A DNA stretch of 64,000 bases. It comes from Acidimicrobiales bacterium (GTDB lineage Bacteria > Actinomycetota > Acidimicrobiia > Acidimicrobiales > JBBSGY01). The DNA lies in contig JBGAQY010000010.1 of the NCBI GenBank assembly GCA_044220495.1, positions 8,126 to 72,125 on the forward strand, in the 5' to 3' direction. Numbering within the stretch: position 1 is the stretch's first letter; every line of letters starts with the position of its first letter. This document shows, piece by piece, positions 1 through 60,955 of this stretch. The notes below the pieces were generated by a model, which saw only the letters and a program-made list of their open reading frames with translations, was not told where the DNA came from and ran no database searches. The position numbers and the translations under genes are program-made.

Positions 1-40
1 GGCTGTCACACGAATTAGCGAGTTTGTTGAGTGATGCTGC

Positions 41-1456
41 TTGAATGATCTGCCTGTGACCGAGCCAACCCTGTTCGACGATTCCTTCAGCATCAGCCAA
101 CTCGTCATGCGGTCGAAGAACGCGTTGGCGCGTGAATTTCGCGGCCCGGTTTGGGTAAGGGGCGAGATCAAGTCGATGCGCGAGATGCGGGGCAGCCTTT
201 ATCTCGCGCTTGTTGATCCGGGCTCCTTTACCGACGGCACCGACATCAGTGTTGATGTTGCCTGCTGGCCGCGTCGGCGGGCACTCGTTCAATCGCAACT
301 TCGCGACGCCGGCATAACGCTGGCCGCCGGCATGGAAGTGCGCGTGCAGGGCAACGTGACGCTCAGCAAACTCGGCAAGCTTCAGGTTGAGTTGCTCGCG
401 CTCGACACCGAGGCTTTGTTGGGTCGGCAAGCCGCGGAAAAGAAGCGGTTGCTCGCCACACTCGTCGCTGAAGGGTTGTTTGACGCCAATCGATCACTCG
501 CCGTTCCGCTCGTGCCTTTGCGCGTGGGCCTGGTGTCGAGTGAGGGCAGCGAGGGCTACAACGACTTTCTTGGTCAGTTGAGTCGATCGCCCTACGCATT
601 CGATGTGACGTTTGCGCACTCGCCCGTGCAAGGCCCAACCGCTCCCAACTTGTTGGCTCGCGCCATTGCGAGCATCGCCGACGTCGATGTCATTGCGGTC
701 GTACGTGGTGGCGGTGGCGAGCTCGACGCCTTCGACAAAGAAGCTGTGGCTCGCGCGATTGCTGGCGCCCGTGCGCCAGTGTTTACGGGCATTGGTCACA
801 CGGGCGATCGTTCGGTAGCCGATGATGTCGCCGCCAGGGCCCACATCACTCCGACAGAGTGCGGGCAAGCATTGGTGCGCGCTGTTGGTGAGTTCGTTGC
901 CGGAGTCGACCGCAGAGTTGCTCAGCTGCATGCATTGACTTCACAACTGGTGACCAACGAGACCGCTCGTCATCAACACCTGCGCGCACGGCTGGCCTCA
1001 GCTGGCACGACTTCGCTCGATCGCTGTCAACACGAGCTTCATCGCCAAGGCGAACGTGCAATGCGCAGCACCGATCGCGATCTGTCGCTCGCGACAGCAA
1101 CATTGAATCGCACGCGCGACGAGATCACACGAACGGCGTCAACGGCACTGACTTCGGCTCAAGCTCGTGTGCTGCAGTTAGCAAAGGCAGCTTCTGGCGG
1201 GGCCGCTCGCCGACAGCAATCGCTCGAACAAGTCAGCAGGCTTTGGCATCAACAACTTTCGGTGTTTGATCCCCAACGTCAACTTCAACGCGGCTACAGC
1301 ATTGCCCGCAGCTCGTCAGGCGACTTGCTGCAAAGCGTCGAACAGGTAAGTGCCGGCGATACGATCGTCACGACCCTGGCAGACGGCGAAACTCACTCAA
1401 CCGTGAGCGAAACCAGGTCTGCCCGAAGTTCTACGCATCCTCAGGAGAGTTCATGA
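41..1456 (+). CDS. xseA: Exodeoxyribonuclease VII large subunit
   Basis: 471-aa ORF with an XseA-like N-terminus (SISQL..ALAREF..VWVRGEI) and a long helical C-terminal half. Its stop overlaps the xseB start by ATGA. Confidence 0.85.
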   Translation: MNDLPVTEPTLFDDSFSISQLVMRSKNALAREFRGPVWVRGEIKSMREMRGSLYLALVDPGSFTDGTDISVDVACWPRRRALVQSQLRDAGITLAAGMEVRVQGNVTLSKLGKLQVELLALDTEALLGRQAAEKKRLLATLVAEGLFDANRSLAVPLVPLRVGLVSSEGSEGYNDFLGQLSRSPYAFDVTFAHSPVQGPTAPNLLARAIASIADVDVIAVVRGGGGELDAFDKEAVARAIAGARAPVFTGIGHTGDRSVADDVAARAHITPTECGQALVRAVGEFVAGVDRRVAQLHALTSQLVTNETARHQHLRARLASAGTTSLDRCQHELHRQGERAMRSTDRDLSLATATLNRTRDEITRTASTALTSAQARVLQLAKAASGGAARRQQSLEQVSRLWHQQLSVFDPQRQLQRGYSIARSSSGDLLQSVEQVSAGDTIVTTLADGETHSTVSETRSARSSTHPQESS

Positions 1457-1710
1457 CCGAACAATCGCAACCCGTCAGCCCAACTGAGCTGTCATACGAA
1501 GAAGCGGTCGCCGAACTCGAATCAATCGTGCACGACCTCGACATTGGCGTTATCAATGTCGACACACTCAGCGACCAGTTCCAACGCGCCATCGATATCG
1601 TCGAAGAACTCGACAGTCGCATCAATCGCACTCGAGACAAGATCAACGCACTCACCCCAAGACTCCAAGCAATCAGCGAACCAACAGGTTCAGCCGAGTC
1701 AGGGGAGTAG
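1453..1710 (+). CDS. xseB: Exodeoxyribonuclease VII small subunit
   Basis: 85-aa ORF with the typical XseB helical hairpin (SYEEAVAELESIV..L). Translationally coupled to xseA. Confidence 0.85.
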   Translation: MTEQSQPVSPTELSYEEAVAELESIVHDLDIGVINVDTLSDQFQRAIDIVEELDSRINRTRDKINALTPRLQAISEPTGSAESGE

Positions 1711-1760
1711 TCGCCAGCCTCCCAATCGCATGCGCCGACGTCGGCTCGTCTGACCTTTGC

Positions 1761-1830
1761 CTTTCACCTACCCAAGAAGCCCAACAATCGGCGTTTCTGG
1801 GCCCTGTTTTGGGCTTCTTGGGTGGGTGAA
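1761..1830. repeat. Palindromic intergenic element, copy a (TTTCACCTAC...GTGGGTGAAA)
   Basis: The 23-nt arms 1761-1783 and 1808-1830 are reverse complements with a single T:G position. The termini are shared with 7 other copies in the window. Confidence 0.85.
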
Positions 1831-1843
1831 AGAGGGTTTCGTT

Positions 1844-1911
1844 CTTTCAACCGCGCGATATGACCAAACACGGGCATGTTGGTTGCTGTTTTTGGCTATA
1901 TCGCGTGGTTG
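1844..1911. repeat. Palindromic intergenic element, copy b
   Basis: TTTCAACCGCGCGATATGACCAAA ... TTTGGCTATATCGCGTGGTTGA. Same family as the copies at 20988 and 54686, and directly adjacent to copy a. Confidence 0.8.
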
Positions 1912-1914
1912 ACA

Positions 1915-2038
1915 CGGCTCGCCCAGCGCCGTGGGCACCAGCTAGGTAAGTGAGCGAGAGTTTCGTGGCGGCTTGCCCAGCGCCGTGGGTACCAGTTGGT
2001 TAAGTAGACGAGTGGCTCGCCCAGCGCCGTGAGCACCA
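1915..2038. repeat. Three tandem copies of a 26-nt core GGCT(C/T)GCCCAGCGCCGTG(G/A)G(C/T)ACCAG
   Basis: Cores lie at 1915-1940, 1969-1994 and 2013-2038, separated by related spacers (..GGTAAGTGAGCGAG.. and ..GGTTAAGTAGACGAG..). Confidence 0.8.
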
Positions 2039-2058
2039 GCCCGCGATGACCGGTGGAG

Positions 2059-2301
2059 CTAGTCCTTCTCGATGAAGATGCACTCGCCAGGACACTCTTC
2101 GGCCGCCTCGATGACTGAGTCTTCGAGATCGGTCGGAACGGCAGCGAGACCAGCCGAGCCGCCAGGGTCGCTATAGACCTTGTCGGTGTCTTTCACGTAG
2201 GCGAGACCGTCGTCAAGCAGGGTGAACACGGCAGGAGCTATCTCTTCACAGAGACCATCACCGGTACACAGGTCTTGATCGATCCATACTTTCATCGCCA
2301 T
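2059..2301 (-). CDS. Small ferredoxin (single-cluster actinobacterial type)
   Basis: 80-aa ORF with motifs CTGDGLC ... ECPGECI, typical of 3Fe-4S/4Fe-4S ferredoxins. Confidence 0.8.
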
Positions 2302-2471
2302 TACGCGCCTTCACCTTCTTTCGCTTCCGCGATTTGTTCGGCTTCCCTTATGACTATACCGGCGCTCGGTCGGTTACCTGGTCAACCAAGAAAGCCAAAA
2401 GTTGGCAGCGAACAGGACGAACTTCCGTTCCTAACGACGGCTCCGGTGTTAAGTTCACCCCAAACAAGGGG

Positions 2472-4253
2472 GTGATTCCGCTGGCCGAGGCAGAGTCCAC
2501 ACGACGCTTGAACGAATACGAGAAAGAAGTCTCCGAACTTCGCGAACAAGCCAAAGTGCTTGAAGAGGAAGTCACGGGTCTTCGCCGTCGCGTCCAAGAC
2601 GCCCCCAAACGAGTCCGCACACTTGAAGAGAAGCTGCTCGAAACCAAGGGCCAGCTCGCCCAAGCGATCTCGCAAAACGAAAAGCTCACCTACACACTTC
2701 GCGAGGCGCGTGAGCACATCGCCGCTCTCCGCGACGAAGTCGACAAACTCACACAGCCTCCATCTGCCTACGGAACCTTCCTGAACAAGAATGACGACGG
2801 CACGGTCGACGTCTTGTCGGCGGGGCGCAAGATGCGAGTCGCCCTTCACCCCGAGCTCGAAAAAGACGAGCTGAGTCGCGGTGATGAAGTTGCCCTCAAC
2901 GAATCACTCAACGTCGTTCTTGCTCGCGCCGGTGAACGTCAGGGTGAAGTCGTTACCCTCAAAGAAGTTCTCGACGATGAGCGTCGCGCCATGGTTGTTG
3001 GTCGCGCTGATGAAGAGCGTGTTGTCGAGCTCGCCGAAAGCCTTATCGGCGTGAAGCTGCGCGCCGGCGACTCGTTGTTGATGGATCCTCGTTCCGGTCT
3101 TCTGCTCGAAAAGCTTCCACGTGCCGAAGTCGAGACATTGCTGCTCGAAGAAGTGCCCGACATTTCTTATGCAGATGTCGGCGGCCTCGACGACCAGATC
3201 GAAGCCATCACCGACGCAGTCGAGCTGCCGTTCTTGCACCGCGACTTGTTCAACGAATACAAGCTGCCAGCACCGAAAGGCATCTTGCTTTATGGCCCTC
3301 CCGGCTGTGGCAAGACCCTCATCGCCAAAGCAGTCGCCAACTCGCTCGCCAAAAAGGTCGGTGAGGTCAGCGGCGACAAGCAAGCACGTGCGTATTTCAT
3401 CAATATCAAGGGTCCGGAACTACTCAACAAGTATGTCGGTGAGACCGAACGGCAGATCCGCCTCGTCTTCGAACGCGCGCGCGAAAAGGCCGAAGAGGGC
3501 ATGCCTGTCATCGTCTTCTTCGACGAGATGGATTCGTTGTTCCGCACGCGTGGCACGGGTATTAGCTCTGACATGGAATCGACAATCGTTCCGCAGTTGC
3601 TTGCCGAGATCGACGGCGTCGAAGCGTTGCGCAACGTCATTGTCATTGGCGCATCGAATCGTGAAGACTTGATCGACCCCGCCATCCTTCGCCCCGGCCG
3701 CCTCGACGTGAAGATCAAGGTCGAACGTCCTGACGCGCCGGCCGCCGAGCAGATCTTCAGCCGTTACCTCACACCTGAATTGCCCATCGACGTGGCCGAG
3801 GTCAAGAAGTACGGCAAGGGCGACGCCAATAAGGCGTGCAAGGCAATCATCGAGAAGACCGTCGAAGCCATGTATGACACCGGCGATCAAAACCGCTTCA
3901 TCGAAGTCACCTATCAAAACGGCGATAAAGAAGTCATGTACTTCAAAGACTTCAGTTCTGGCGCCATGATCGAGAACATCGTCGCCAAGGCAAAGAAGTT
4001 TGGTGTGAAGCGCGAGATTTCGGGCGACGGCAAAGGCATCAAGCTCGATCACATGCTGCAGGCCGTGCGCGACGAGTTCCGTGAAAACGAAGACCTTCCG
4101 AACTCCACAAATCCTGACGACTGGGCCAAGATCTCGGGCAAGAAGGGCGAGCGCATCGTGTTCTTGCGAGTTCTCGTTCCGAAGGAAGACGACGAGGGCG
4201 AAGAATCCGGCGGCCGCGCTATCGAACGCGTCACCACCGGTCAGTACCTGTAG
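2472..4253 (+). CDS. arc: Proteasome-associated AAA ATPase Mpa/ARC
   Basis: N-terminal coiled coil, then QPPSAYG and OB-like regions. Walker A GPPGCGKT and Walker [10 protein letters not shown] are present, and the C-terminus ends GQYL. The ORF is open from TTG 2334. GTG 2472 is preferred because it gives a Mycobacterium-like length and leaves a divergent promoter gap, but the start is uncertain. Confidence 0.9.
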
Positions 4254-4307
4254 CTCTCGCCGCAAGCTCGCTACCTAGCCGAGCATCAGCGCGCTTCGGC
4301 CCACGGG

Positions 4308-4381
4308 CTTTCGCCTGCGCGATACGACCGAAACCACCAGCGCCACAGTGCCTCTTTTTGGACATATTGCGTAGGTGAAAG
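4308..4381. repeat. Palindromic intergenic element, copy c
   Basis: CTTTCGCCTGCGCGATACGACCGAAA ... TTTGGACATATTGCGTAGGTGAAAG. Several arm differences are G:T-compatible. Confidence 0.7.
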
Positions 4382-4459
4382 TTCGGCCGTAGGCGTGAAC
4401 TCGTTTTGGTTTCGGTCGATAGCCTCGGCGATCCTTTTGCACCGCTACCAGGAGCATTC

Positions 4460-6469
4460 ATGGGAATTCTCACCATTTCGCACGACGAAAACGGCACGAT
4501 CATCGAGGGCACCACCCGCAGCCTTGATGATCGTGGACTCGGCGAGGTGTTTCGTCCGCACGGCTTTGCATTTGATGAACAACGCAAAACATGGGTTCTG
4601 AGAGACAGCGTTGGTATTGAATTTCGACCCGAGCCCGTCGACCGCGTCATCGCCGCCCTCGAGCGAGTCAACCGCACTGCCGTCGTCGGCGACACGAACA
4701 ACGACAATTGCAACCCCGTGCCTGACGCAATACGCGAACGCGAGCAACGACTCCAACAGTTCTACGGCGGTGAACCTGCTGACGAAGTTGCTTTTAACAA
4801 GCATCGACTTGAATACATCGTTGAAAAGCTCGGCACCGCTCGCACGCGATTCGAAAAGGCCTGCCATGCTGCAATAAGTGACGTGCCGTCAGTCGACAGC
4901 ACTGCCCTCATTGACGGTGCCAGCGTTGTCGAGCGCCTAAGACTTGGAGCACACGTGAGTGTTGCTGGCCCGACTGGCGATCCACTGCCGCCGGTGTTCG
5001 TGCGATTTCGTGAACGCGATCGTGTCGAGATTGGCGAGGCTTGGCAGACGAAGTTCACGCTGGCGCTGCACGACGCTGACTTGTTTGAAGTTGTCTGCCC
5101 CGACTCGTTCCGCTATCTGGGCAACAAGAAACCGTCGCCGCCCATCACTTTCGTCGGGGAAGGCATCGAGTACAGCCCGCTTGCCTTAACCGAGGCGCGC
5201 GACGAACTCGAGCAGTGGCAGGCCGAACTCGTCTACGGCTTCACTATTCGCGGCTTCAAATTGTGGGGGAGTGACCACTTCAAAGACGGAGATGTCGTAT
5301 CGAAGACCGGAACCAGCGGCGTGTTGGTAGCGAGTGAAGGATCGATCAGAACCGACGGCCTGCGTCCTAAGAAGATCGTCGCCGGTAAAACGGGGATGCG
5401 CGTCGGGGGCTTCATCAGCACCACGCCCTGGCCTTACAAGAGCGTTGATTCGCTCAAGCGCAATGACCCCACGACCGGCGGCTCGATCGTGATGGTCGAA
5501 CCGCCCAGCCTCCCGAAGTGGATTAAAGAACTCGTCAATCGACACTGGCGACGCAACGGGTATGACGGATTTTCATTTGATGGCATCGCTGCGTCAAGAG
5601 CGCCAATCGCGATCGATAAGCCGGCCATCCCCAATCTGCAGGCAAAAACACCTCCCAAGAAGGTGGTCGAAGAGGTTCCGTCGTTTGGGCTTTTTGATCC
5701 TGAACCAGTTGCGGTAACCCCCGAACCCGAGGCGCCGACACCAACGCCCGCGCCTGCTGTCGCGACCACCGACGCAGCCAGCGTTGAGAGCCGACTCAAA
5801 GAGGCGCGTCTGCAGCTTGGTGACTTCATGATCACGATGGCCGCACAACTACGGGCCAGTGGCAACGAACGCGGCGCTGATGACTTTCTTCCGCTCATCG
5901 GAACGACTGAGAATCTGCGCAACCTTTTGCGCAGCGGCAAGCAAGTCCGCGTGTTTGTTCCTTCGCAGGGCAGCAGTGACGCCATAGATCACGGCACGCG
6001 CATCATCGGCGCAGTTACTCCAACAGAGTTCACAATTGTTAACGGGCGCCGTCCTCTCAAATTCAGCATTCCGCTCGACAGCGATCGGTTGTTGCTCGAA
6101 GGCCCTGACACGATCACCTTGCGTAACGCCGGGCGCGACGTGACGCTCACGTTGATCAGACCCGATGCGCTGCTCACAACAGAAGATCGCGAGCAGCTCG
6201 ATACGTTGCGCAGCGAGGTGCGCTCACTCGAAGCGACAATCGTCACAATGATCGACAACGGAGAGTTCGTGCCGAGCGATCCGGCCGAAATGCAGCCGCT
6301 CGTCGACCGTCATCGCTTGATACGCGAGCCCGCCCCGGTTGTGGCTGTCGTCGCGGCGACAGACGCGACCGAACTGGTTGCCACAGATGCGTCGAGCCCA
6401 GCGGCAACGCCCAGGCCAAGCGGGATTTCCGACAGACAAACATACCCACGCGTCGCATCGGCCAACTAG
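4460..6469 (+). CDS. Uncharacterised 669-aa protein with a DUF3560-like N-terminus
   Basis: ATG 4460 is preceded by AGGAG with about 5-nt spacing. The N-terminus MGILTISHDENGTIIEGTTRS resembles the DUF3560 opening (ITITHT..EGTL.EGTSRGDG). A Pro/Thr/Ala linker is encoded at about 5696-5780. The rest is not recognised. The stop lies 10 nt before the dop start. Confidence 0.6.
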   Translation: MGILTISHDENGTIIEGTTRSLDDRGLGEVFRPHGFAFDEQRKTWVLRDSVGIEFRPEPVDRVIAALERVNRTAVVGDTNNDNCNPVPDAIREREQRLQQFYGGEPADEVAFNKHRLEYIVEKLGTARTRFEKACHAAISDVPSVDSTALIDGASVVERLRLGAHVSVAGPTGDPLPPVFVRFRERDRVEIGEAWQTKFTLALHDADLFEVVCPDSFRYLGNKKPSPPITFVGEGIEYSPLALTEARDELEQWQAELVYGFTIRGFKLWGSDHFKDGDVVSKTGTSGVLVASEGSIRTDGLRPKKIVAGKTGMRVGGFISTTPWPYKSVDSLKRNDPTTGGSIVMVEPPSLPKWIKELVNRHWRRNGYDGFSFDGIAASRAPIAIDKPAIPNLQAKTPPKKVVEEVPSFGLFDPEPVAVTPEPEAPTPTPAPAVATTDAASVESRLKEARLQLGDFMITMAAQLRASGNERGADDFLPLIGTTENLRNLLRSGKQVRVFVPSQGSSDAIDHGTRIIGAVTPTEFTIVNGRRPLKFSIPLDSDRLLLEGPDTITLRNAGRDVTLTLIRPDALLTTEDREQLDTLRSEVRSLEATIVTMIDNGEFVPSDPAEMQPLVDRHRLIREPAPVVAVVAATDATELVATDASSPAATPRPSGISDRQTYPRVASAN

Positions 6470-6479
6470 GGTCGATGGC

Positions 6480-7970
6480 GTGGCCATTCGCAAGATCTGC
6501 GGTATCGAAACCGAGTACGGCATTGTCCAGCGGGGCGCGGGCGAGTCAAACCCCATCACAGCGTCGTCGGTGCTCATCAATGCCTACGTTGCTTCGCTCG
6601 CGCGTCGAGTCGCGTGGGACTTTGAAGACGAATCGCCCGGCAACGACGCTCGTGGTTTTGCTCGAGAGGGTGCGTTGCCGCCCGAGATCGAAACACACCT
6701 AGTCAATGCAGTTCTCACAAACGGCGCGCGCTATTACGTCGACCACGCGCACCCCGAATACTCCAGCCCCGAGTGCGGCAATGCGTTAGAGGCGGTGCTT
6801 TACGACCGCGCTGGCGAACAAATTCTCATCGAGTCGATGGATGCTGCGTCAAAATCCATGCCCGGTGCCGAACACATCGTTGTTTACAAGAACAACAGTG
6901 ATGGCAAAGGCAACTCATACGGCACGCACGAAAACTATTTGATGGACCGCGACATTCCGTTCAATCGAATCGTGCAACACGTCATGCCGCACTTCGTCAC
7001 GCGTCAGATCTATACGGGCGCCGGCAAGGTCGGCACCGAAGCTGACACCGGCAAACAAGAGGTTCCGTTTCAGCTGACGGCGCGCGCTGATTTCTTCGAA
7101 GAAGAAGTCGGCCTTGAGACAACGCTAAAGCGCCCAATTATCAATACGCGCGATGAGCCGCACGGCGACGCTCGCAAATACCGCCGTCTGCACGTGATTG
7201 TCGGTGACGCCAACATGAGCGAAGTGTCGACGTTCTTGAAGCTCGGCACAACAACGTTCGTGCTGGCGATGATCGAAGATGACCGCTTGAGTGATCTCGA
7301 CTTTGCGATGGTTGCGCCCGTGAGTGAAATCCGCCAGATCAGCTACGACTTGACACTGTCTAGGCAGATTCAACTTCGCAACGGCAAACAGTTGACTGCA
7401 CTTGAAATGCAGTGGGAATACTTCGATCGTGCTCGCAAATACGCAGATGACATCGGCCTTGAATGTATTGGTGACGAAGAAGTCGGTAAACAAATTCTCA
7501 CCCGGTGGGAGCAAGTTCTGATCGGTCTCGAATCAGATCCCATGACACTTGCTAATCAGCTCGACTGGGTGGCCAAGTATCAACTGCTTGATGCCTATCG
7601 TGAACGCCATGGCCTTGATTGGAAGAACGCCAAGCTTGCTGCGATGGACTTGCAGTACCACGACATCCGTCCAGAAAAGTCGCTGTTTGCACGACTGCCA
7701 ATCGAGAAACTCGTGACGCCGGCTGCCGTTGTCGCAGCAGTTAGCGAGCCTCCGCGTGACACAAGAGCGTATTTTCGAGGAAAATGTTTACAGAAATGGG
7801 GAAACTCCATTGCTGCTGCGAACTGGGACTCCATAGTTTTCGATCTAGGTACAGACCCGCTTCGCAGAATTCCAATGATGGATCCCTTAAGAGGAACAGC
7901 CGATGGTGTCGATGCACTAATCGAGCGATGCGATACACCTGCTCAGTTGATCGAACAGCTGGGCGCATAG
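6480..7970 (+). CDS. dop: Pup deamidase/depupylase Dop
   Basis: Opening (I)CGIETEYGI, then YVDHAHPEYSSPEC and GNSYGTHENYL (carboxylate-amine ligase fold). Located immediately upstream of pup. GTG 6480 is chosen; the ORF-track start at 6339 would overlap the upstream gene by 130 nt. Confidence 0.9.
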   Translation: MAIRKICGIETEYGIVQRGAGESNPITASSVLINAYVASLARRVAWDFEDESPGNDARGFAREGALPPEIETHLVNAVLTNGARYYVDHAHPEYSSPECGNALEAVLYDRAGEQILIESMDAASKSMPGAEHIVVYKNNSDGKGNSYGTHENYLMDRDIPFNRIVQHVMPHFVTRQIYTGAGKVGTEADTGKQEVPFQLTARADFFEEEVGLETTLKRPIINTRDEPHGDARKYRRLHVIVGDANMSEVSTFLKLGTTTFVLAMIEDDRLSDLDFAMVAPVSEIRQISYDLTLSRQIQLRNGKQLTALEMQWEYFDRARKYADDIGLECIGDEEVGKQILTRWEQVLIGLESDPMTLANQLDWVAKYQLLDAYRERHGLDWKNAKLAAMDLQYHDIRPEKSLFARLPIEKLVTPAAVVAAVSEPPRDTRAYFRGKCLQKWGNSIAAANWDSIVFDLGTDPLRRIPMMDPLRGTADGVDALIERCDTPAQLIEQLGA

Positions 7971-7982
7971 GAGAACGAACCA

Positions 7983-8180
7983 ATGGCTGAACGAGAACAA
8001 ATCAAGAAGTCATCTTCCAAGAAGGGCGAGACCGAAGTTGAAGACGTCGCGCCTGCGTCCACCGAGAAGGGCGAAAAGCTCAAAGAAGAAATGGACGACC
8101 TGCTCGACGAGATCGACGAAGTGCTCGAGGTGAATGCCGAAGAGTTCGTCAAGTCCTACGTGCAAAAGGGCGGACAGTAG
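7983..8180 (+). CDS. pup: Prokaryotic ubiquitin-like protein Pup
   Basis: 65-aa acidic, disordered ORF with helical DDLLDEIDEVLE and a C-terminal GGQ. RBS GGAGAA lies upstream. Confidence 0.95.
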   Translation: MAEREQIKKSSSKKGETEVEDVAPASTEKGEKLKEEMDDLLDEIDEVLEVNAEEFVKSYVQKGGQ

Positions 8181-8189
8181 AGTCGTGCT

Positions 8190-9272
8190 GTGCACGTCTC
8201 TATTTGCCACCCAAAAGAGCTAGGGCCGGCAGAGCGAGCCTCTTGGTCTGCATTTCAGGCCGACAGCGACCAGCTTGATAGTGCGTTTCTGAGCTACGAA
8301 TTTGCTGAGGTTGTTGGCCGTCACAACGACAACGCGCGCGTGGCCGTTATCGCTGACGGCGCGCAAACAGTCGGCTTCTTTGCTTACGAACTTGAGGGCG
8401 GGCGACTGGCTCGGCCAATCGGCGCAGGGTTCTCTGACGTGCAAGGCGTCGTGCACAGTCAGGCGTTCCAACTCAACCTGCGTGAACTCTTGAACGCATG
8501 CAACATTGCGATGTTTGAGTTTGATCACCTGATAACCACTCAAGCAACGCAACCTGGCGTGCATGCGCGCAACCATGATTCGCCGGTGCTCGATGTTACG
8601 GGCGGTTACGACGCCTACATGGAGCGCGACGATCGCGTTAACCGTAAGTCGGTCAAGGGTTTCATGCGCAAGCAGCGCAATCTCGAACGCGACAACGGTC
8701 AATGCTCGCTCGAATTCGACAGTCACGATGGTGACGCGCTGCAACAAGTAATGGCGTGGAAGTCTGACCAATATCGCCGCACGGGCTTTGCTGACATCTT
8801 CGCCAAGCCCGAGATGCGCGCCGTTGTTGAAGACCTCGCGTTAGTCGAATCACCAGACTTGACAGGTCGGCTCTCGGTGTTGAAAACCGGCGACCAACAA
8901 ATTGCTATTCACTTCGGCCTTCAGTCGCGTCGCACACTGGCGTTGTGGTTTCCGGCCTATGACCCGCAATTCGGCAAATACTCGCCGGGCATCACCTTGC
9001 TGCTCGAGATAGCGAAGGCGTCAACTGACTACGGCTTCAGATACATGGACCTCGGCAAGGGTGACGAGAGCTACAAGCAGTCGTTCAAGAGTTTCGATCA
9101 TTCAGTATCCAGCGGGTGGATCGGTGGTTTAAACGCCACAACGGTTTTGCGACGCGCCCGCAAAGCGCCCGTCGAGCGCGCCGAGCAGTTCGTTCTCGAC
9201 AACCCCAAGTTGCGCGCCGCGGCGCGCAAGACGCTCCGCACTGTCGGCAAAATTCGCCAACGCAACAAGTGA
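8190..9272 (+). CDS. CelD/BioF2-like GNAT-fold acyltransferase (Acetyltransf_6-like)
   Basis: 360 aa. The C-terminal half (WFPAYDPQFGKYSPGITLLLEIAK..GFRYMDLGKGDESYKQSF) matches my recollection of the CelD/FemAB-related GNAT signature (ydp...k.sPG..L....i......G...fDfg.G.e.YK). Confidence 0.65.
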   Translation: MHVSICHPKELGPAERASWSAFQADSDQLDSAFLSYEFAEVVGRHNDNARVAVIADGAQTVGFFAYELEGGRLARPIGAGFSDVQGVVHSQAFQLNLRELLNACNIAMFEFDHLITTQATQPGVHARNHDSPVLDVTGGYDAYMERDDRVNRKSVKGFMRKQRNLERDNGQCSLEFDSHDGDALQQVMAWKSDQYRRTGFADIFAKPEMRAVVEDLALVESPDLTGRLSVLKTGDQQIAIHFGLQSRRTLALWFPAYDPQFGKYSPGITLLLEIAKASTDYGFRYMDLGKGDESYKQSFKSFDHSVSSGWIGGLNATTVLRRARKAPVERAEQFVLDNPKLRAAARKTLRTVGKIRQRNK

Positions 9273-9299
9273 CATGACAACGATCGTTGGCTCAGCAAG

Positions 9300-9944
9300 G
9301 TGACACCAAGAATTCGTCTGACATTCCCCTGGGAATTTGTCGACAATTACTGGCGCTGGGTAGCCTCAGACCTCGTGCCACCAGCAGGACTGAAACTAAG
9401 GCTCCTTGAGGCGGGTCGCGAACAAGAAGCTGCCTCTGACGATGTGTGGGGTTTGATCTCAGCGCTCGATCGTGAATTCGTACCAAGTCTCTCTTCGCGA
9501 ACCGACACAACCGAGCATGACCTCACCAAAGAAACCATTTGGGGTGGCCCGATCTCGTTCTACGACACGGTGATGAAAGAGCGAATCATCCTCGCCACTG
9601 TTGACGACAAAGTCGTTGGGATCATGACGTTCATTCCGCACTACGAAGAAGAGATGTTGGCAAAGTGGTCGCCGTCGACTTATGCGTCGACAACCGGCAT
9701 CTTGCCGGCCTACCGTCGACTAGGTATCGCCAAAGCCCTAAACGATGCGCTCGAAACATTGCCACCCGATTTGGCAAGCCCATGGATTACACGTCGTACG
9801 TGGTCAACAAACGTTGCCAACCTCACGCTGCTGAAGTCACGCAACTTCGAAGAAGTCATCCGCCTGAAAGACCACCGCGGCCCGGGCATCGACACCATCT
9901 ACCTAGCTCGCCGCACCTACCAAGACGAGGCCGTCGGCGACTAA
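9300..9944 (+). CDS. GNAT family N-acetyltransferase
   Basis: 214 aa. The acetyl-CoA-binding-like segment ILPAYRRLGIAKAL follows a beta strand (ILATVDDKVVGIMTF). GTG start. Confidence 0.6.
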   Translation: MTPRIRLTFPWEFVDNYWRWVASDLVPPAGLKLRLLEAGREQEAASDDVWGLISALDREFVPSLSSRTDTTEHDLTKETIWGGPISFYDTVMKERIILATVDDKVVGIMTFIPHYEEEMLAKWSPSTYASTTGILPAYRRLGIAKALNDALETLPPDLASPWITRRTWSTNVANLTLLKSRNFEEVIRLKDHRGPGIDTIYLARRTYQDEAVGD

Positions 9945-9960
9945 CCGCCATAGGTCGCCC

Positions 9961-10098
9961 GGCGACCGTCAACGCAGCAATGGCCCTATTGGCGCGTGGT
10001 GGAAGCGGTGCCAATAGGCGTCAGTGCAAGGCGACGGGCGGTGAGGTTTACGAGGGTAAATGAGGCGACCGTCAACGCAGCAATGGCCCTATTGGCGC
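9961..10098. repeat. Perfect 35-nt direct repeat pair (9961-9995 and 10064-10098)
   Basis: GGCGACCGTCAACGCAGCAATGGCCCTATTGGCGC occurs twice, 103 nt apart. An inverted CCTATTGGC/GCCAATAGG hairpin lies between the copies. Located in the GNAT-prcB intergenic gap. Confidence 0.9.
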
Positions 10099-10135
10099 CC
10101 GCTTACGTTGGGGCCCGGGTAGCATCGCAGTCCTA

Positions 10136-10942
10136 ATGAATCTGCCGATGTTTTCACCCCACGACAGCCCTGGCTCAAACTTCTCTGAGCTGCTGCGACG
10201 CATAGGCCTAGACCCGAGCGAACGCATGACAAAGGCGCAAGCATCTGACGCTCTGATTGCGCCGCATGCAACGACCATCATTGCCCTCACCTATGCAGAT
10301 GGCGTGATGATGGCAAGCGACCGGCGCGCAACGATGGGGCACACGATCTCTGATCGCAACATCGAGAAGGTGCACCCCGCCGACAAGTACTCCGGCATCT
10401 CGATCTCGGGGTCGGCGGCCTTCGGCATGGAAATGATTCGTGCATTCCAACTCAACCTCGAGCACTACGAAAAGATCGAGGGCAAGCACTTGAGCATGGA
10501 GGGCAAGGCCAACCAGCTGAGCGGCATGATTCGCGCCAACCTTGGCATGGCCATGCAAGGTTTCGTCGTTGCACCAATCTTTGCTGGCTTCGACCTCAAC
10601 CGAGGTGTTGGTCGCATCTTTGCTTACGACGTTCTTGGCGGACGATCAGAAAAAGACGACTTTCACGCTGATGGTTCGGGCAGCCGCATAGCAGGCCCGA
10701 TCATCAAGGTCGGGTGGAAGCCCGGCATGAACCTTGAAGACACGATCGAGCTCGGCATTTCATCGCTCTACGAAGCCGCCGACGACGATGCAGCGACTGG
10801 TGGCCCCGACGTAATTCGTGGCATCTATCCAATGGTCGCGACAATCACCGAGAACGGCTACGCCCGCGTGCCTGACGACGAAGTTGCCACACGCTTTGCG
10901 GCTCTCATTGCTCGCAAGACCGAACAAGGACACCGCCCATGA
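10136..10942 (+). CDS. prcB: 20S proteasome beta subunit
   Basis: Propeptide followed by the TTIIAL catalytic-Thr motif, then SDRRAT and GSGS motifs. Overlaps the prcA start. Confidence 0.9.
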   Translation: MNLPMFSPHDSPGSNFSELLRRIGLDPSERMTKAQASDALIAPHATTIIALTYADGVMMASDRRATMGHTISDRNIEKVHPADKYSGISISGSAAFGMEMIRAFQLNLEHYEKIEGKHLSMEGKANQLSGMIRANLGMAMQGFVVAPIFAGFDLNRGVGRIFAYDVLGGRSEKDDFHADGSGSRIAGPIIKVGWKPGMNLEDTIELGISSLYEAADDDAATGGPDVIRGIYPMVATITENGYARVPDDEVATRFAALIARKTEQGHRP

Positions 10943-11637
10943 GCATGCCGTTTTACGTAGCACCTGAGCAATTGATGAAAGACAAGGCTGACTACGCGCG
11001 CAAGGGCATTGCTCGTGGTCGCTCGTTGGTTGCGGTTTTGTATGCAGATGGCATTCTCATCGCTGCCGAAAATCCTTCGCGTACGTTGCACAAGGTCAAC
11101 GAAATTTACGACCGCATCGCGTTTGCTGGCGTGGGCAAGTTCAATGAGTACGACCAGTTGCGCCAAGCCGGTGTTCGTCACGCCGACATCAAGGGCTACA
11201 CCTACTCGCGTGAAGATGTCGACGCACGTTCACTTGCCAACGCGTACGCGCAGTCGATCGGCCAAGTGTTTACACACGACATGAAGCCGCTCGAAATCGA
11301 GATCTTGGTCGCCGAAGTCGGTTTCTTGGCTAGCGGAGATCAGCTGTATCACATCACTTACGACGGCACCGTTATGGACGAAACGCGCTTCAGCGTTCTT
11401 GGCGGTGAGGCCGAGGCGATCGGCGAACGTCTCGAAGAGACCTTTGAAGAATCGATGGACTTCGTAACGACGTTGAAGGTCGCTGTCGACGCGCTGCAAG
11501 GCGAAGTCACCGACGACGATGATCGCTTGCTGCCCGACGAACTAGAGGTTGCCGTGCTCGATCGAACGGCAAGCCGGCGAACTTTCCGTCGAGTTCCGCG
11601 AGCCGAGCTGGCAACGCTGCTCGAAGACGAATCCTGA
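10939..11637 (+). CDS. prcA: 20S proteasome alpha subunit
   Basis: MSMPFYVAPEQLMKDKADYARKGIARGRS is a typical bacterial PrcA N-terminus. ATGA overlap with prcB. Confidence 0.9.
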   Translation: MSMPFYVAPEQLMKDKADYARKGIARGRSLVAVLYADGILIAAENPSRTLHKVNEIYDRIAFAGVGKFNEYDQLRQAGVRHADIKGYTYSREDVDARSLANAYAQSIGQVFTHDMKPLEIEILVAEVGFLASGDQLYHITYDGTVMDETRFSVLGGEAEAIGERLEETFEESMDFVTTLKVAVDALQGEVTDDDDRLLPDELEVAVLDRTASRRTFRRVPRAELATLLEDES

Positions 11638-11654
11638 TCGCGTAACAAGACACT

Positions 11655-13013
11655 GTGGACCGCCGCATTTTTGGCCTCGAAAACGAATACGGCGTCACAT
11701 GCACGCTCAAAGGACAGCGGCGCCTAAGCCCCGACGAAGTTGCGCGCTACTTGTTTAGGCGGGTGGTGAGTTGGGGCCGTTCGTCGAACGTCTTCCTCGA
11801 AAACGGCGCTCGTCTCTATCTCGATGTCGGCAGTCATCCTGAATATGCGACGCCTGAATGTGACAATCCACTCGACTTGGTAACGCACGACAAGGCCGGC
11901 GAACGCATCCTCGAAGGTTTGCAATTGTCAGCCGAACAACGTCTGGCCGAAGAAGGCATCAGGGGAGTGGTGTACCTCTTCAAAAACAACACCGACTCGG
12001 CGGGCAACTCATATGGATGCCACGAGAACTACTTAACAAGTCGACGCGATGACTTTGCTCACTACAGCGAGATATTGATCCCTTACTTTGTGACGCGTCA
12101 GATTTGGGCCGGTGCCGGCAAGGTTTTTCAGACGGCTCGGGGTGCGACTTACTGCTTGAGTCAACGCGCTGAACACATTTGGGAAGGTGTGTCGTCAGCA
12201 ACGACCCGTAGTCGTCCGATCATCAACACGCGCGATGAACCGCACGCAGACGCCGAAAAATATCGACGCCTACACGTCATTGTCGGCGACTCCAACATGA
12301 GCGAATACACGACGTATTTGAAGATCGGCGCAACGAGCATCGTTCTGCGCATGCTCGAAGACCCAGAAACGAAGATGAAAGACCTCACGATGGAGAACCC
12401 GATCAGGGCTATCCGTGAGATCAGCCACGACCTCACCTGTAAGCGCAAGGTGCGCCTAGCCAGCGGACGTGAGATGACGGCACTCGACGTGCAAAGCGAA
12501 TATCTCGAACGCGCGCTTGAATATCGCGATCGCGTTGGCCTCGACCAGTATGAGACCAAAGCTCTCGAAATGTGGGAGCACGTGTTGACAAATCTGAATG
12601 ACGATCCGTTCAAACTCGATCGCGAGTGCGACTGGGTCATCAAACACAAGTTGGTCGAGTCATACCGAACGCGTCATGAGGTCACGCTCAATTCGCCACA
12701 AGTTGCCCTGCTCGATTTGCAGTATCACGACATCAATCGCGAACGCAGCCTCTATTACAAGATGCAAGACAAGGGCATGCTCGAGCGTGTCACAACTGAT
12801 GAGGCGATTCAGAAGGCAATTGACGAGCCTCCGCAAACAACGCGTGCGCGCTTGCGCGGTGAGTTCATCAAGGCAGCAAAAGAAAAACGTCGCGACTTCA
12901 CCGTCGACTGGGTGCACCTAAAGATCAACGACAACGCGCAACGTACCGTTCTGTGTAAAGACCCCTTCAAGTCGCAAGATGATCGAGTCAAGAAGCTGAT
13001 CGAAAGTCTTTAG
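11655..13013 (+). CDS. pafA: Pup-protein ligase PafA
   Basis: [30 protein letters not shown] and [12 protein letters not shown] paralog of dop that lacks the Dop-specific insertion. Confidence 0.9.
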
Positions 13014-13015
13014 CG

Positions 13016-14056
13016 GTGCCCGGTTTTCAGACGGCAACTGTGGCTCAGATCACGGTCGAACGCGTTGGATTGCAGCGTCTTGTCGTCGCCATGCCTGACG
13101 GCGAGCACAGTGCTGCCTACGCGCTTACTGAGATCATTGGGCCCGTTGCAGTGGGCGACAGCGTGATCGTCAACACAACGGCTGTCGACCTTGACCTCGG
13201 CACTGGTGGCTCACACGTCGTGCATTGGAATCTCGCTCGTGACAGCTGGCAGCGCCAGGGCCCAGGCCACGTGATGAAGGCGCGCTACACGAGCGAGCAA
13301 CTTGATGCCGGCGTCTACGAAGAAGCCGCCGACTATCAAGCTCCGATCAGTCTCGATGGCACGCCAGTAATCGTGTGCTTGCTGCACAGTCAGATGGTTG
13401 CTGCTGCGGTTGCGATCAAGCATCTGCAGCCTGACGCGCGCGTTGGTTACGTGATGACCGATCAAGCCAGTTTGCCGGCGGCAATCTCTGACGTCTTGCA
13501 TGAATTGCGCGATCGACAGTTGGTCGACTTCACCGTTACTGCCGGCCAGGCATTCGGCGGTGATCACGAGGCAGTCAATACAACCTCGGCACTGGGCGTT
13601 GCGCGACATCTTGGAGCCGACATCATCATCGTGAGCCAAGGCCCAGGCGTCGTCGGAACCGACACGCGACTCGGCTTTAGCGGGCTCGAAGCAGCTGAGA
13701 TCCTCACCAGCGCTCAGCGCTACGGCGGCCAGCCGTTGTTAGCGCTGCGATGGTCTGACGCAGATGCACGCCCACGCCACCGAGGCATGAGTCACCACAG
13801 CACAACGGTTCTAGAGCGCACCGCAGTCTCCGTAGACGTGGCCATCCCCGCGAGTCGTGCGGATGAGGTCACACGCGTCGGTGATCACCGCTTCACTCAG
13901 CTAGGCGACATCGATATTGCCAAGTTGTTCGACACTCACGACCTTCGCGTGACTTCAATGGGTCGTTCGGCGAGCCAAGACCCCGGTTTCTTCGAATTTT
14001 CCGCAGCAGCCGGCTCACTTGCCGTTCGTCTAGCGCCACACCTTGGCAGCAGGTGA
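13016..14056 (+). CDS. DUF3866-like conserved hypothetical protein
   Basis: 346 aa. VNTTAVDLDLGTGGSHVV matches the remembered DUF3866 signature (NTTAv.LgLGTGG). The GTG start is 2 nt after the pafA stop. Confidence 0.6.
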   Translation: MPGFQTATVAQITVERVGLQRLVVAMPDGEHSAAYALTEIIGPVAVGDSVIVNTTAVDLDLGTGGSHVVHWNLARDSWQRQGPGHVMKARYTSEQLDAGVYEEAADYQAPISLDGTPVIVCLLHSQMVAAAVAIKHLQPDARVGYVMTDQASLPAAISDVLHELRDRQLVDFTVTAGQAFGGDHEAVNTTSALGVARHLGADIIIVSQGPGVVGTDTRLGFSGLEAAEILTSAQRYGGQPLLALRWSDADARPRHRGMSHHSTTVLERTAVSVDVAIPASRADEVTRVGDHRFTQLGDIDIAKLFDTHDLRVTSMGRSASQDPGFFEFSAAAGSLAVRLAPHLGSR

Positions 14057-20924: not shown

Positions 20925-20987
20925 CGCGCTGCTGGGGGCCCACCCCACGCCTGGGGCATGCAGCTTGGCGCCCGCCGCATGGCGCCC

Positions 20988-21057
20988 TTTCAACTACGCG
21001 ATATGACCAAAACATGGCCTGTTTGGCTGCCGATTTGGCTTTATCGCGTGGGTGAGA
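20988..21057. repeat. Palindromic intergenic element, copy d
   Basis: TTTCAACTACGCGATATGACCAAA ... TTTGGCTTTATCGCGTGGGTGA. The left arm is identical to that of copy e. Confidence 0.85.
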
Positions 21058-21099
21058 GGTGGTCCCGTGCGAAGTGAGGTGTCTAAGTAGACTGCGCTG

Positions 21100-28263: not shown

Positions 28264-28809
28264 TTGAGTGCGGACAGGGTCTATGCTGCCGCCTCGAGTG
28301 GGCCCCGAAAGGCAATTGAAATGTCAGACGACATGGACGAAATCGAAGAAGAAGAACTAGAAGAAGCGAGCGATGGCGACATCGAGCTCGATGAAGACGA
28401 AGACTTTCCCGGCGACGACGATGACGACGCCGTAGAACCCTTCATCAGCGATGACGACGAGGTCGGCGACGACCTTGAGGAAGAAGATGAAGAGCCCGCC
28501 GCCGCTGCCGGCAAAAAGGCCAAGGTCGCCGACGCCGAAGAAGACGACGATGACGAAGAAGAAGACGGTGAAGATGTCGAGGCCAGCCTTGATGTCATTC
28601 TCAAAGAGCGCATCGCTGTTGAAGACGACGAAACCGAAGAAGACGACGATGACGACGACGGCGCCCCATCAGATGACGATCGTGGCGACTCCAACCGCAA
28701 GGTCGCCCCACGACGTCCTGACGAGTTCGTCTGTCAGTCTTGTTTCTTGGTGAAGCACCCGAGTCAGCTGGCTGACAAGGCTCGGCAACTATGCCTCGAC
28801 TGCGTCTAG
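28264..28809 (+). CDS. DUF4193-family acidic protein with C-terminal zinc ribbon
   Basis: The C-terminus DEFVCQSCFLVKHPSQLADK..LCLDCV matches the DUF4193 hallmark. A very long D/E-rich N-terminal region precedes it. Alternative ATG start at 28321. Confidence 0.75.
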   Translation: MSADRVYAAASSGPRKAIEMSDDMDEIEEEELEEASDGDIELDEDEDFPGDDDDDAVEPFISDDDEVGDDLEEEDEEPAAAAGKKAKVADAEEDDDDEEEDGEDVEASLDVILKERIAVEDDETEEDDDDDDGAPSDDDRGDSNRKVAPRRPDEFVCQSCFLVKHPSQLADKARQLCLDCV

Positions 28810-53957: not shown

Positions 53958-54247
53958 CTGAGATCTCTCCCTGCCCGTATCCAGGGATAATGCCGCCGCA
54001 GGCCGACTTGAGTCGGCGCAAACCCCTGGCTGTTGATCGGCATCTTTCAGGGGCGACTTGAGGGTGGATTTCGCACCACCCTCAAACGCGAGCAAGCGCC
54101 GCAACCCCGTGCAAAGTCGCAGCGCTTGCTATGTAAGGCTCCCCGACCCAAAGGGTGCCAACCACTGAGGGTACCGACTCCCCCAGCTCGATCAATGACG
54201 AAAGTATTACAATACGTAAGATCGCCTCAGCTCCGTTGCACGTTGGT

Positions 54248-54386
54248 GGCCGTCGCTGACCTCGCCGCCACTGGCCGTCGCTGGCCGCTGGCCGCCGGCT
54301 GGCTGTCGCTAGCCGGCACTGGCTGTCGGCCGCTGGCCGGAGCTGACTGGCCGTCGCTGACCTCGCCGCCACTGGCCGTCGCTGGC
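54248..54386. repeat. Identical 38-nt direct repeat pair within a low-complexity CTGGCCG/TCGC tract
   Basis: GGCCGTCGCTGACCTCGCCGCCACTGGCCGTCGCTGGC occurs at 54248-54285 and 54349-54386 (period 101). Confidence 0.85.
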
Positions 54387-54490
54387 TGTCGGCCGCCGCT
54401 GACCTCGATGTCAGATACTCGCCGGCCGCCGCTGGCCTCGAGTACCACGCCACCCGGGCCGCCCGCCACCGACTGACACAACTCTGCCGT

Positions 54491-54530: not shown

Positions 54531-54685
54531 ACGCGCACAACTCGCCAGGCCGCGCGCCGCACGCTTCAGGCCGCGGCGCCGCACGGTCCATGCGGCGCCC
54601 CGCGCGCCGCAAGCTTCAGGCCCGCCATCAAGCGCGGCGCGCCCGGGCCGAACCTCATTGCCCGAACCCCATTGCCCGAACCTCA

Positions 54686-54756
54686 TTTCAACTACGCGAT
54701 ATGACCAAATCTGGGCCGGATCCGGCCTTGTTTTGGGCTTTTCGCGTGGGTGAAAG
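54686..54756. repeat. Palindromic intergenic element, copy e
   Basis: TTTCAACTACGCGATATGACCAAA ... central GGCCGGATCCGGCC ... TTTTGGGCTTTTCGCGTGGGTGAAAG. Confidence 0.85.
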
Positions 54757-54773
54757 CAGCACATCCCTCAAAT

Positions 54774-55556: not shown

Positions 55557-55585
55557 AACCCGACCTTAACGCTGACGCCCAACCC

Positions 55586-55654
55586 CATTTGGACCAAGCG
55601 GTATAGCCAGATCGGGCAGATCCGCCTCGTTTGGTCGTTTCGCATAGTTGAAAG
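55586..55654. repeat. Palindromic intergenic element, degenerate copy f
   Basis: The right arm TTTGGTCGTTTCGCATAGTTGAAAG is family-typical. The left arm matches copy e at 14 of 20 positions. Confidence 0.55.
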
Positions 55655-55731
55655 CGGCACAGGCCTCGACGAGAGCGGGAGCGCCACTGTCAGGGGCCGC
55701 GTAAACAGCCCCTGAACTGGAGTTTTATGGG

Positions 55732-58925: not shown

Positions 58926-58962
58926 TCGCGACCGACCCCCAGCCGACTGGGACGAAAGCCCT

Positions 58963-59030
58963 TTTCACCCACGCGAGAAAGACCAGATCCGGGCCCATGG
59001 GGCTCGATTCTGGTCTTCTCGCGTAGGTGA
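58963..59030. repeat. Palindromic intergenic element, copy g
   Basis: TTTCACCCACGCGAGAAAGACCAGA ... TCTGGTCTTCTCGCGTAGGTGA. Confidence 0.8.
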
Positions 59031-59053
59031 GTTCAGGCGGGCTGAGTGGGCCG

Positions 59054-60694: not shown

Positions 60695-60803
60695 GGTGAA
60701 ATCCTTCGTTCAAAAGTGCGTCCCGCCTGTTTGTCCAAGGTACCGACGGCTCTACTGGGGGTCAACGGTTCACCGTGTCGAGGTTCTGAATCGGCGAATC
60801 CTC

Positions 60804-60874
60804 TTTCAAGTACCCAAGAAGCCCAAAACACGGTCTGTTCCAGCCAGGTTTTGGGCTTCTGCGGTAGGTGAAAG
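60804..60874. repeat. Palindromic intergenic element, copy h
   Basis: TTTCAAGTACCCAAGAAGCCCAAAAC ... GTTTTGGGCTTCTGCGGTAGGTGAAAG. Same subfamily as copy a. Confidence 0.85.
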
Positions 60875-60955
60875 GTGGTCGGTGGACTTGTGCGCAGCAA
60901 GCTGCGCAGTGCAGGCCGATCCGGATAGACCCGACCGGCCGATAACCTTTGGGTA

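Follow-up and report, generated by a model that had tools for sequence, protein, structure and literature searches.

An orphan gene in the arc-dop spacer of an Acidimicrobiales Pup-proteasome cluster and its likeness to actinobacterial plasmid DUF3560 proteins

Here, we analysed a window of 64,000 nucleotides from an Acidimicrobiales bacterium (GenBank assembly GCA_044220495.1, contig JBGAQY010000010.1), in which an open reading frame (ORF) on the forward strand, for which we use the working name orfX (positions 4460-6469), lies between arc (mpa), coding the proteasomal AAA ATPase, and dop, coding the depupylase/deamidase. We show that 1) orfX is a real protein-coding gene, 2) it is a sequence singleton, confined to one lineage, 3) by profile comparison, its first 73 residues share homology with the module at the N-terminus of DUF3560-containing proteins from actinobacterial plasmids, and 4) the space between arc and dop is a variable slot for cargo and no conserved element within the Pup-proteasome system (PPS). 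Our favoured reading, to which we give an even chance, is that orfX is a plasmid-derived, lineage-specific cargo gene in this slot, with a function of mobilome type and not that of a dedicated PPS component.

The reality of the gene follows from its long open frame, its ribosome-binding site (AGGAG) and its host-typical codon usage in frame 1 over the full length. At 58% GC, a frame that stays open for 2 kb is very unlikely to arise by chance. GC content by codon position (0.64/0.48/0.65) follows the pattern of arc, dop and the genes around them. With a leave-one-out codon model, for which the window's remaining long ORFs served as the training set, frame 1 of orfX reaches 0.237 bits per codon, most other genes of the window lying at 0.13-0.43, and the best alternative frame about 0; frame 1 is top-scoring in 12/12 overlapping 300-nt windows along the gene. 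The ATG at 4460 is supported as the start because orfX and the plasmid DUF3560 proteins both align from residue 1. The predicted product is acidic (73 kDa, pI 5.3) and has no hydrophobic segment (maximum 19-residue hydropathy 1.2), and we predict it to be a soluble cytoplasmic protein. An earlier note on this DNA, made from the sequence alone, had placed a 669-aa frame with an AGGAG site 206 nt downstream of arc and 10 nt upstream of the GTG start of dop, and all of these positions hold (orfX stop TAG at 6467-6469, dop GTG at 6480). We consider it very improbable that orfX is non-functional, be it a spurious long ORF or a tolerated decaying relic of an inserted gene. The gene occurs only once and so offers no measure of purifying selection, AlphaFold2 gives a poor model from the single sequence (mean pLDDT 38), and long stretches of the protein are of low complexity; however, the frame of 2010 nt is uninterrupted and preceded by a consensus ribosome-binding site, frame 1 is the best in every 300-nt window with a coding signal in the range of conserved genes, and the N-terminal module keeps 11 of 21 family-conserved residues, as described below. 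A spurious ORF was rejected on the uninterrupted frame, the ribosome-binding site and the coding statistics.

Searches of protein, metagenome, viral and related-locus collections returned no family or homologue of orfX, which bears out the orphan status that had been assigned to it from the sequence. Scanning the whole protein with Pfam, NCBIfam, PHROGs and PADLOC gave no match, and at E ≤ 10 there was none for four segments of it in Pfam or for the protein among PDB sequences. A word-indexed search of 5.8 billion protein clusters and an exhaustive phmmer search of 1.84 billion representatives each returned only orfX itself, and the N-terminal 80 aa, queried alone, gave zero candidates. Nothing was found when JGI metagenome contigs and IMG/VR were scanned with orfX, or by tblastn against GenBank phages, and a look-up of contigs by the exact product had no entry for it. 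We also examined the 80 best loci for Dop among species-representative genomes, most of them labelled as Acidimicrobiales, Acidimicrobiia or Acidimicrobiaceae metagenome-assembled genomes (MAGs) and the remainder as Actinomycetota, Actinomycetes, Microthrixaceae and, in two cases, 'Acidobacteriota'; orfX is absent from all of them (0/80 by tblastn at E ≤ 1e-3, with only noise at E ≤ 10). Within the window orfX has no paralogue, and within itself no internal repeats. Singleton ORFans in variable slots are common among MAG-derived genomes, and the Dop of the window is at most 75% identical to that of any of 185,579 species-representative genomes, so that the source bacterium has no close sequenced relative.

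The link to plasmids came from a tblastn comparison of orfX with 72,556 plasmids, which at E ≤ 10 gave ten matches (E = 4-10), all on Rhodococcus plasmids and all spanning orfX residues 1-50 or 1-67. At six of them the gene hit carries the annotation 'DUF3560 domain-containing protein', and at the other four sites no gene is listed. We collected the family of DUF3560 proteins (616 hits; alignment A2 with 32 diverse members, alignment A3 with 45) and compared it with orfX by hhalign, whereby family columns 1-71 aligned with orfX residues 1-73 (probability 86%, P = 5e-6; with the N-terminal 75 aa of orfX alone, probability 94%, P = 1e-7). The N-terminus of orfX scored 49.8, versus 12.5 ± 2.5 (maximum 21.9) for 320 decoys, made up of 160 shuffled orfX N-termini and 160 N-termini of real ORFs. 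The family has 21 invariant or near-invariant positions within residues 1-66, of which orfX retains 11 identically (I6, H8, G13, T14, G18, T19, G24, W43, S48, A64 and L65), substitutes five conservatively and has lost five (G22, D23, R35, R49 and D50). An alignment-based AlphaFold2 model of one family member (P0002, pLDDT 91.9) begins with the elements beta-beta-alpha-beta-beta-alpha-beta, and the single-sequence model of orfX, with a pLDDT of about 55 in the N-terminal region, has the same element order and positions; as this model is too poor for a fold search, we used its secondary structure alone, with caution. Taken together, the tblastn, profile, decoy and secondary-structure comparisons point to homology of orfX residues 1-73 with the N-terminal module of the plasmid proteins.

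This module recurs on at least 174 plasmids of Actinobacteria, among others from Rhodococcus, Streptomyces, Prescottella, Mycobacterium and Clavibacter, where the genes bearing it are almost always annotated as DUF3560, and in none of the phage records. The earlier note had recognised in the first residues of orfX a DUF3560-like opening, associated with actinobacterial plasmid and phage genes. Its likeness, over about 70 aa, to the opening of the plasmid proteins stands, as does the plasmid association, but the Pfam domain itself (PF12083) is not what these proteins open with, and the association with phages found no match. In many Rhodococcus and Streptomyces plasmids, the gene of the DUF3560 protein lies within about 2-10 kb of the end of the record, and some records hold two copies, which suggests that it is telomere-proximal or located in the terminal repeats of linear plasmids. 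Neither the N-terminal module of about 75 aa nor the C-terminal SH3-like barrel of the DUF3560 proteins (about 330 aa) is modelled by any Pfam family, and the module that precedes Pfam DUF3560 could merit a family of its own.

Beyond the module the likeness fades. PF12083 covers residues ~90-207 of the family proteins, where bona fide members score 68-71 bits, and corresponds to a long helical hairpin with a PPGGEPIxxGHHSExRHR loop. When this domain was looked for in orfX, as the earlier note had proposed, there was no match with the whole protein at E ≤ 1 or with four segments at E ≤ 10 (gathering score 27.2 bits). Likewise, hhalign of orfX residues 76-345 against the family gave no alignment over the DUF3560 core, and global alignment failed. 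The GHHSE/RHR part of the loop motif is absent, GGEP (aa 103-106) alone being present; while the plasmid core holds P127, G130, P132, G136, S139, R142 and H143 as invariant (alignment A3), orfX is without G136, S139, R142, H143 and GHHSE.RHR. We thus rejected orfX as a member of the DUF3560 domain family, since the PF12083 core is undetectable and only the accessory N-terminal module is shared. In the low-confidence AlphaFold2 secondary structure, the GGEP loop of orfX would fall, topologically, where the P0002 model has the PPGGEP...GHHSE loop of DUF3560. A further, weak match aligns orfX residues 243-285 with family columns 240-282 (hhalign 21.4, a score that 1/240 decoys reaches; empirical p ~0.01) and keeps W251, G275 and D276 of a family set for the C-terminal helix and SH3-like barrel that also has V287 and K293. 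This colinear second match, a possible 'D(E/Q)(L/I)..W ... GD.V' junction before the SH3-like region, suggests that the overall order of the plasmid proteins is perhaps shared by orfX. A family HMMER profile run against 16,382 six-frame ORFs ranked orfX first, with only 12 bits (E = 0.07), which is not independent support. The PEPEAPTPTPAPA linker and the Ala/Thr tail that had been described for the remainder of the protein are present.

The second question is what the position of orfX between arc and dop can tell. The window carries, in this order and on the forward strand, xseA, xseB, arc, orfX, dop and pup, followed by a GNAT gene, a 214-aa ORF, prcB, prcA, pafA, a DUF3866 gene, pafB, pafC and two signal peptidases; by its gene content this is a complete PPS cluster of the chromosomal type, with orfX inside. 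We carried out the survey of the arc-dop gap that the earlier note had advised on the 75 related loci that hold both genes. The median spacer length is 83 nt, with 64/75 loci below 300 nt, and the other 11/75 have inserts of 758-2479 nt, encoding GT2 glycosyltransferase with a protein of no assigned family, methyltransferase with APH-type kinase, GNAT, PAP2 phosphatase, alpha/beta hydrolases, or proteins that match nothing in Pfam. In the closest relative, whose Dop is 75% and whose Arc is 83% identical, the GT2 pair fills the slot. A comparison of orfX with the cargo genes of these slots by blastp and tblastn at E ≤ 10 gave only noise. We found no conserved co-occurrence or synteny of orfX with arc, dop or pup (0/80 loci; 1.84 billion representatives). 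Because the slot is variable among relatives, the position of orfX is weak evidence for a role in pupylation.

Another spacer of the cluster is just as plastic: between pup and prcB, relatives have from 7 nt to 5 kb (7-80 nt in many), and that of the window (8190-9944) holds two genes that none of the 80 related loci has. Three relatives (L047, L050 and L051) show no arc gene within 4.6-10 kb upstream of dop, and the linkage of arc and dop is therefore not universal within this order. Synteny of xseA and xseB upstream of arc was found in 0/80 related loci.

These results bear on the proposal, made in the earlier note from position, that orfX is an adaptor or regulator of Mpa/Dop. In its full form, orfX would be a lineage-specific PPS accessory factor (adaptor, regulator or substrate delivery for Mpa/Dop), kept stoichiometric with Dop and Pup through operon coupling. 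The setting within the arc-orfX-dop-pup-...-prcB-prcA-pafA-pafBC cluster, the 10-nt junction to dop with no terminator-like site there, the host-adapted codon usage, and a multi-domain architecture with flexible linkers that would suit an adaptor all fit such a factor. However, orfX is missing from the 80 related PPS loci and from all databases searched, the slot is usually empty or occupied by unrelated enzymes, the protein lacks at its C-terminus the GQYL/HbYX-type motif by which Mpa and Bpa dock to the proteasome (PMC8223512), and the one part of it that can be recognised derives from a family of plasmid proteins. With arc and dop adjacent in 64/75 loci and unrelated genes in the other 11, the survey did not support the proposal; orfX is probably not a dedicated Pup-proteasome component, and we consider the accessory-factor explanation improbable.

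The alternative put forward in the earlier note was that a mobile-element-derived gene had been captured at a repeat-marked insertion point. Of the two readings, mobile origin is the better supported, because the N-terminus of orfX matches plasmid DUF3560 proteins (tblastn, hhalign and decoys), but the repeat is generic and marks no insertion. As had been noted, the arc-orfX gap holds one copy of a palindromic repeat, at 4304-4389. It is a REP-like palindrome of about 80 nt with the ends CTTTCA...TGAAAG, and the 64 kb contain eight intergenic copies of it, including a tandem pair upstream of arc. We rejected it as an insertion scar since it is a dispersed generic element with eight copies and no insertion hallmarks. 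The 206-nt spacer (4254-4459) folds at -88 kcal/mol (z = -4.5), indicating a very stable hairpin. No Rfam family was found in window positions 1-12000. There is no meaningful target-site duplication or flanking inverted repeat around orfX, and no integrase or other mobility gene marks it. A GC scan found no compositional break around the gene (GC 0.58-0.60 across the region); a recent, compositionally foreign island was likewise rejected, since both GC content and codon usage are host-like.

The same observations would also fit a different origin, in which orfX would be native to the chromosome, evolving fast or arisen largely de novo, and the N-terminal likeness would reflect an old, shared small domain. 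Its composition and codon usage are indistinguishable from those of its neighbours, mobile-element hallmarks are absent, and about 600 aa have no detectable homologue. Yet in the plasmid collection the N-terminal module occurs almost only fused to DUF3560, the colinear second weak match argues for descent from a whole protein and not from a free-standing domain, and the closest relative holds different genes in the slot. We therefore regard a native origin as possible but unlikely.

Returning to the reading that we favour, orfX would descend from the actinobacterial plasmid family of 'DUF3560 domain-containing proteins', of which it would have kept the alpha/beta N-terminal module of about 70 residues, while the helical core would have been lost or have diverged beyond recognition; about 400 further residues, comprising the Pro-rich linker and the orphan C-terminal domain, have no counterpart elsewhere. 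It would have lodged between arc and dop, with time enough since then to take on the composition of the host, and would now be read on the dop-pup message. Co-transcription with dop and pup is most probable because orfX has its own strong ribosome-binding site, the junction is only 10 nt, and no terminator or promoter is recognisable between the genes. A scan of 4100-6700, which in an actinobacterium has little power, found no sigma-70-like promoter on the plus strand and three terminator-like sites, versus 2.6 expected from shuffled sequence, none of them at the orfX-dop junction. The hairpin of the REP-like element may serve to attenuate the arc transcript or to stabilise it. The product would most likely be a soluble multidomain binding or scaffold protein of mobilome type, acting for example in plasmid establishment or anti-defence, roles that are suspected for genes of plasmid leading regions.

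Several observations weigh against this reading. The PF12083 core is undetectable in orfX, so that descent has to be argued from about 70 residues and a weak second match, and the family HMMER profile gives it just 12 bits. In GC content and codon usage orfX is wholly like its host, and there is no integrase, target-site duplication or inverted repeat; any transfer is therefore old, or orfX is native. Moreover, the tight junction of 10 nt to dop would also be expected of a functionally coupled gene. Finally, to our knowledge DUF3560 proteins have no known function to lend the reading support, and in fold searches the confident P0002 model gave no significant structural match in PDB or BFVD (weak SH3-like matches only), and the family profile found nothing among PDB sequences.

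If a plasmid origin holds, a plasmid gene of no known function has been fixed inside a conserved operon, and cargo lands repeatedly in the arc-dop and pup-prcB spacers of Acidimicrobiales. We see only a slim chance that plasmid-derived orfX was domesticated into the PPS operon of one lineage as a modulator translated together with Dop and Pup. Its N-terminal module could then recognise a partner, and the orphan C-terminal domain could deliver that partner to Mpa/Dop or shield it from them, which would make the protein a new class of pupylation adaptor. We know of no genome-encoded adaptor of the bacterial proteasome ATPase from the arc-dop position. The gene would matter much more if its product interacted with Mpa or Dop, to which no present finding points.

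The features of the locus are collected in Table 1. The arc frame given there is the maximal one; its product is 72-83% identical to Arc of other Acidimicrobiales and ends, in the translation, in the proteasome-docking ...GQYL. Because relatives align from residue ~41-65, the true start of arc probably lies about 100-150 nt downstream of 2334.

Table 1 Features of the window around orfX, with the REP-like elements of the whole window.
Feature	Position	Strand	Basis or remark
xseA	41-1456	+	upstream of arc
xseB	1453-1710	+	upstream of arc
REP-like copy	1759-1838		alignment A1, nhmmer
REP-like copy	1840-1917		alignment A1, nhmmer
arc/mpa, proteasomal AAA ATPase	2334-4253	+	maximal ORF; Pfam AAA and Prot_ATP_ID_OB_N/C; translation; stop at 4253
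REP-like palindromic intergenic element	4304-4389	.	alignment A1; nhmmer E = 7e-19; core of the hairpin in the arc-orfX spacer
AGGAG ribosome-binding site	4450-4454	+	sequence; 5-nt spacer to ATG 4460
orfX coding sequence	4460-6469	+	669 aa; no internal stops
orfX: predicted N-terminal beta-beta-alpha-beta-beta-alpha module, aa 1-73	4460-4678	+	hhalign, decoys, secondary-structure order, tblastn
orfX: putative helix-loop-helix with GGEP, aa 76-145	4685-4894	+	low-confidence AlphaFold2 secondary structure; without statistical support
orfX: weak colinear match to helix-to-SH3 junction of DUF3560 proteins, aa 243-285	5186-5314	+	hhalign score 21-22
orfX: Pro/Ala/Thr-rich acidic linker, aa 381-445	5600-5794	+	includes PEPEAPTPTPAPA, aa 421-433
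orfX: orphan C-terminal domain, aa 446-620	5795-6319	+	predicted helices, about 6 strands, long helix; matches nothing
orfX: Ala/Thr/Pro-rich tail, aa 621-669	6320-6466	+	ends ...TYPRVASAN; probably disordered
dop (depupylase/deamidase)	6480-7970	+	GTG start; Pfam Pup_ligase 1e-167; begins VAIRKICGIETEYG
pup	7983-8180	+	65 aa, C-terminal ...GGQ; 55-81% identity to pup of relatives
GNAT gene (Acetyltransf_6, FemAB-like)	8190-9272		pup-prcB spacer
214-aa ORF	9300-9944		pup-prcB spacer; no Pfam match
REP-like copy	20983-21067		alignment A1, nhmmer
REP-like copy	54680-54762		alignment A1, nhmmer
REP-like copy	55583-55661		alignment A1, nhmmer
REP-like copy	58956-59031		alignment A1, nhmmer
REP-like copy	60799-60882		alignment A1, nhmmer

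Other repeats were noticed in the window. The 620-nt spacer between xseB and arc is a repeat-dense region upstream of arc, in which three tandem units of about 51 nt (CGGCTCGCCCAGCGCCGTGGGCACCAGC...) at 1915-2063 stand beside two REP-like copies. Directly upstream of prcB, a perfect direct repeat of 35 nt, GGCGACCGTCAACGCAGCAATGGCCCTATTGGCGC, occurs at 9961-9995 and 10064-10098, 103 nt apart, and may serve in regulation or be the scar of a duplication. Further along, an Asp/Glu-rich coding stretch of low complexity with GAAGAAGACGACGAT-type repeats spans 28326-28688, and GC-rich imperfect tandem repeats (periods 14-42 nt) at 54247-54407 and 54545-54687 adjoin a REP-like copy. Within the PPS cluster, the DUF3866 gene (1.9e-94) occupies 13016-14056, between pafA and pafB/pafC.

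Slot genes are not peculiar to Acidimicrobiales. By locus-tag order, Mycobacterium tuberculosis has mpa (Rv2115c) and dop (Rv2112c) separated by two genes, Rv2114 and Rv2113 (PMC8223512). The slot genes of M. tuberculosis and of the Acidimicrobiales MAGs share their position with orfX and vary by lineage, whereas most slot genes elsewhere are small enzymes with clear Pfam domains and orfX has no Pfam domain. We know of no demonstrated role in pupylation for the slot genes of other Actinobacteria. Among the actinobacterial cofactors of the proteasome and Mpa, Bpa (PafE) and Mpa itself are soluble, cytoplasmic and connected with the PPS, and orfX is likewise encoded inside a PPS cluster. Bpa co-occurs strictly with proteasome genes, in contrast to the single occurrence of orfX. 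Bpa and Mpa dock via a C-terminal GQYL motif (PMC8223512), which the Arc of the window has and orfX does not.

The nearest comparison is with the plasmid DUF3560 proteins of about 320-360 aa, such as WP_037149796.1 (linear plasmid of Rhodococcus fascians A21d2) and WP_306471563.1 (R. erythropolis pRLLBG43). With these, orfX shares the N-terminal pattern LTI(S/T)H..GT(I/L)I(E/D)GT.R...G.......G(F/W).(F/W)......TW......S....(V/I)DR...AL, although the invariant R49 and D50 of the module are lost. The orfX protein is twice as long, with its orphan linker and C-terminal domain, and acidic, whereas the plasmid family is basic and Arg-rich; orfX is also chromosomal, in an Acidimicrobiales PPS operon, while its DUF3560 relatives reside on plasmids. 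DUF3560 has been described as targeted by CRISPR spacers and as occurring on ~1000 plasmids (PMC6965323), and a DUF3560 gene adjoins ssb on pO157 (PMC11125564). The suggested terminal placement on linear plasmids recalls the leading-region location on enterobacterial plasmids. Set beside these proteins, orfX is a strongly diverged and enlarged version of an uncharacterised plasmid protein type, in an unusual chromosomal place.

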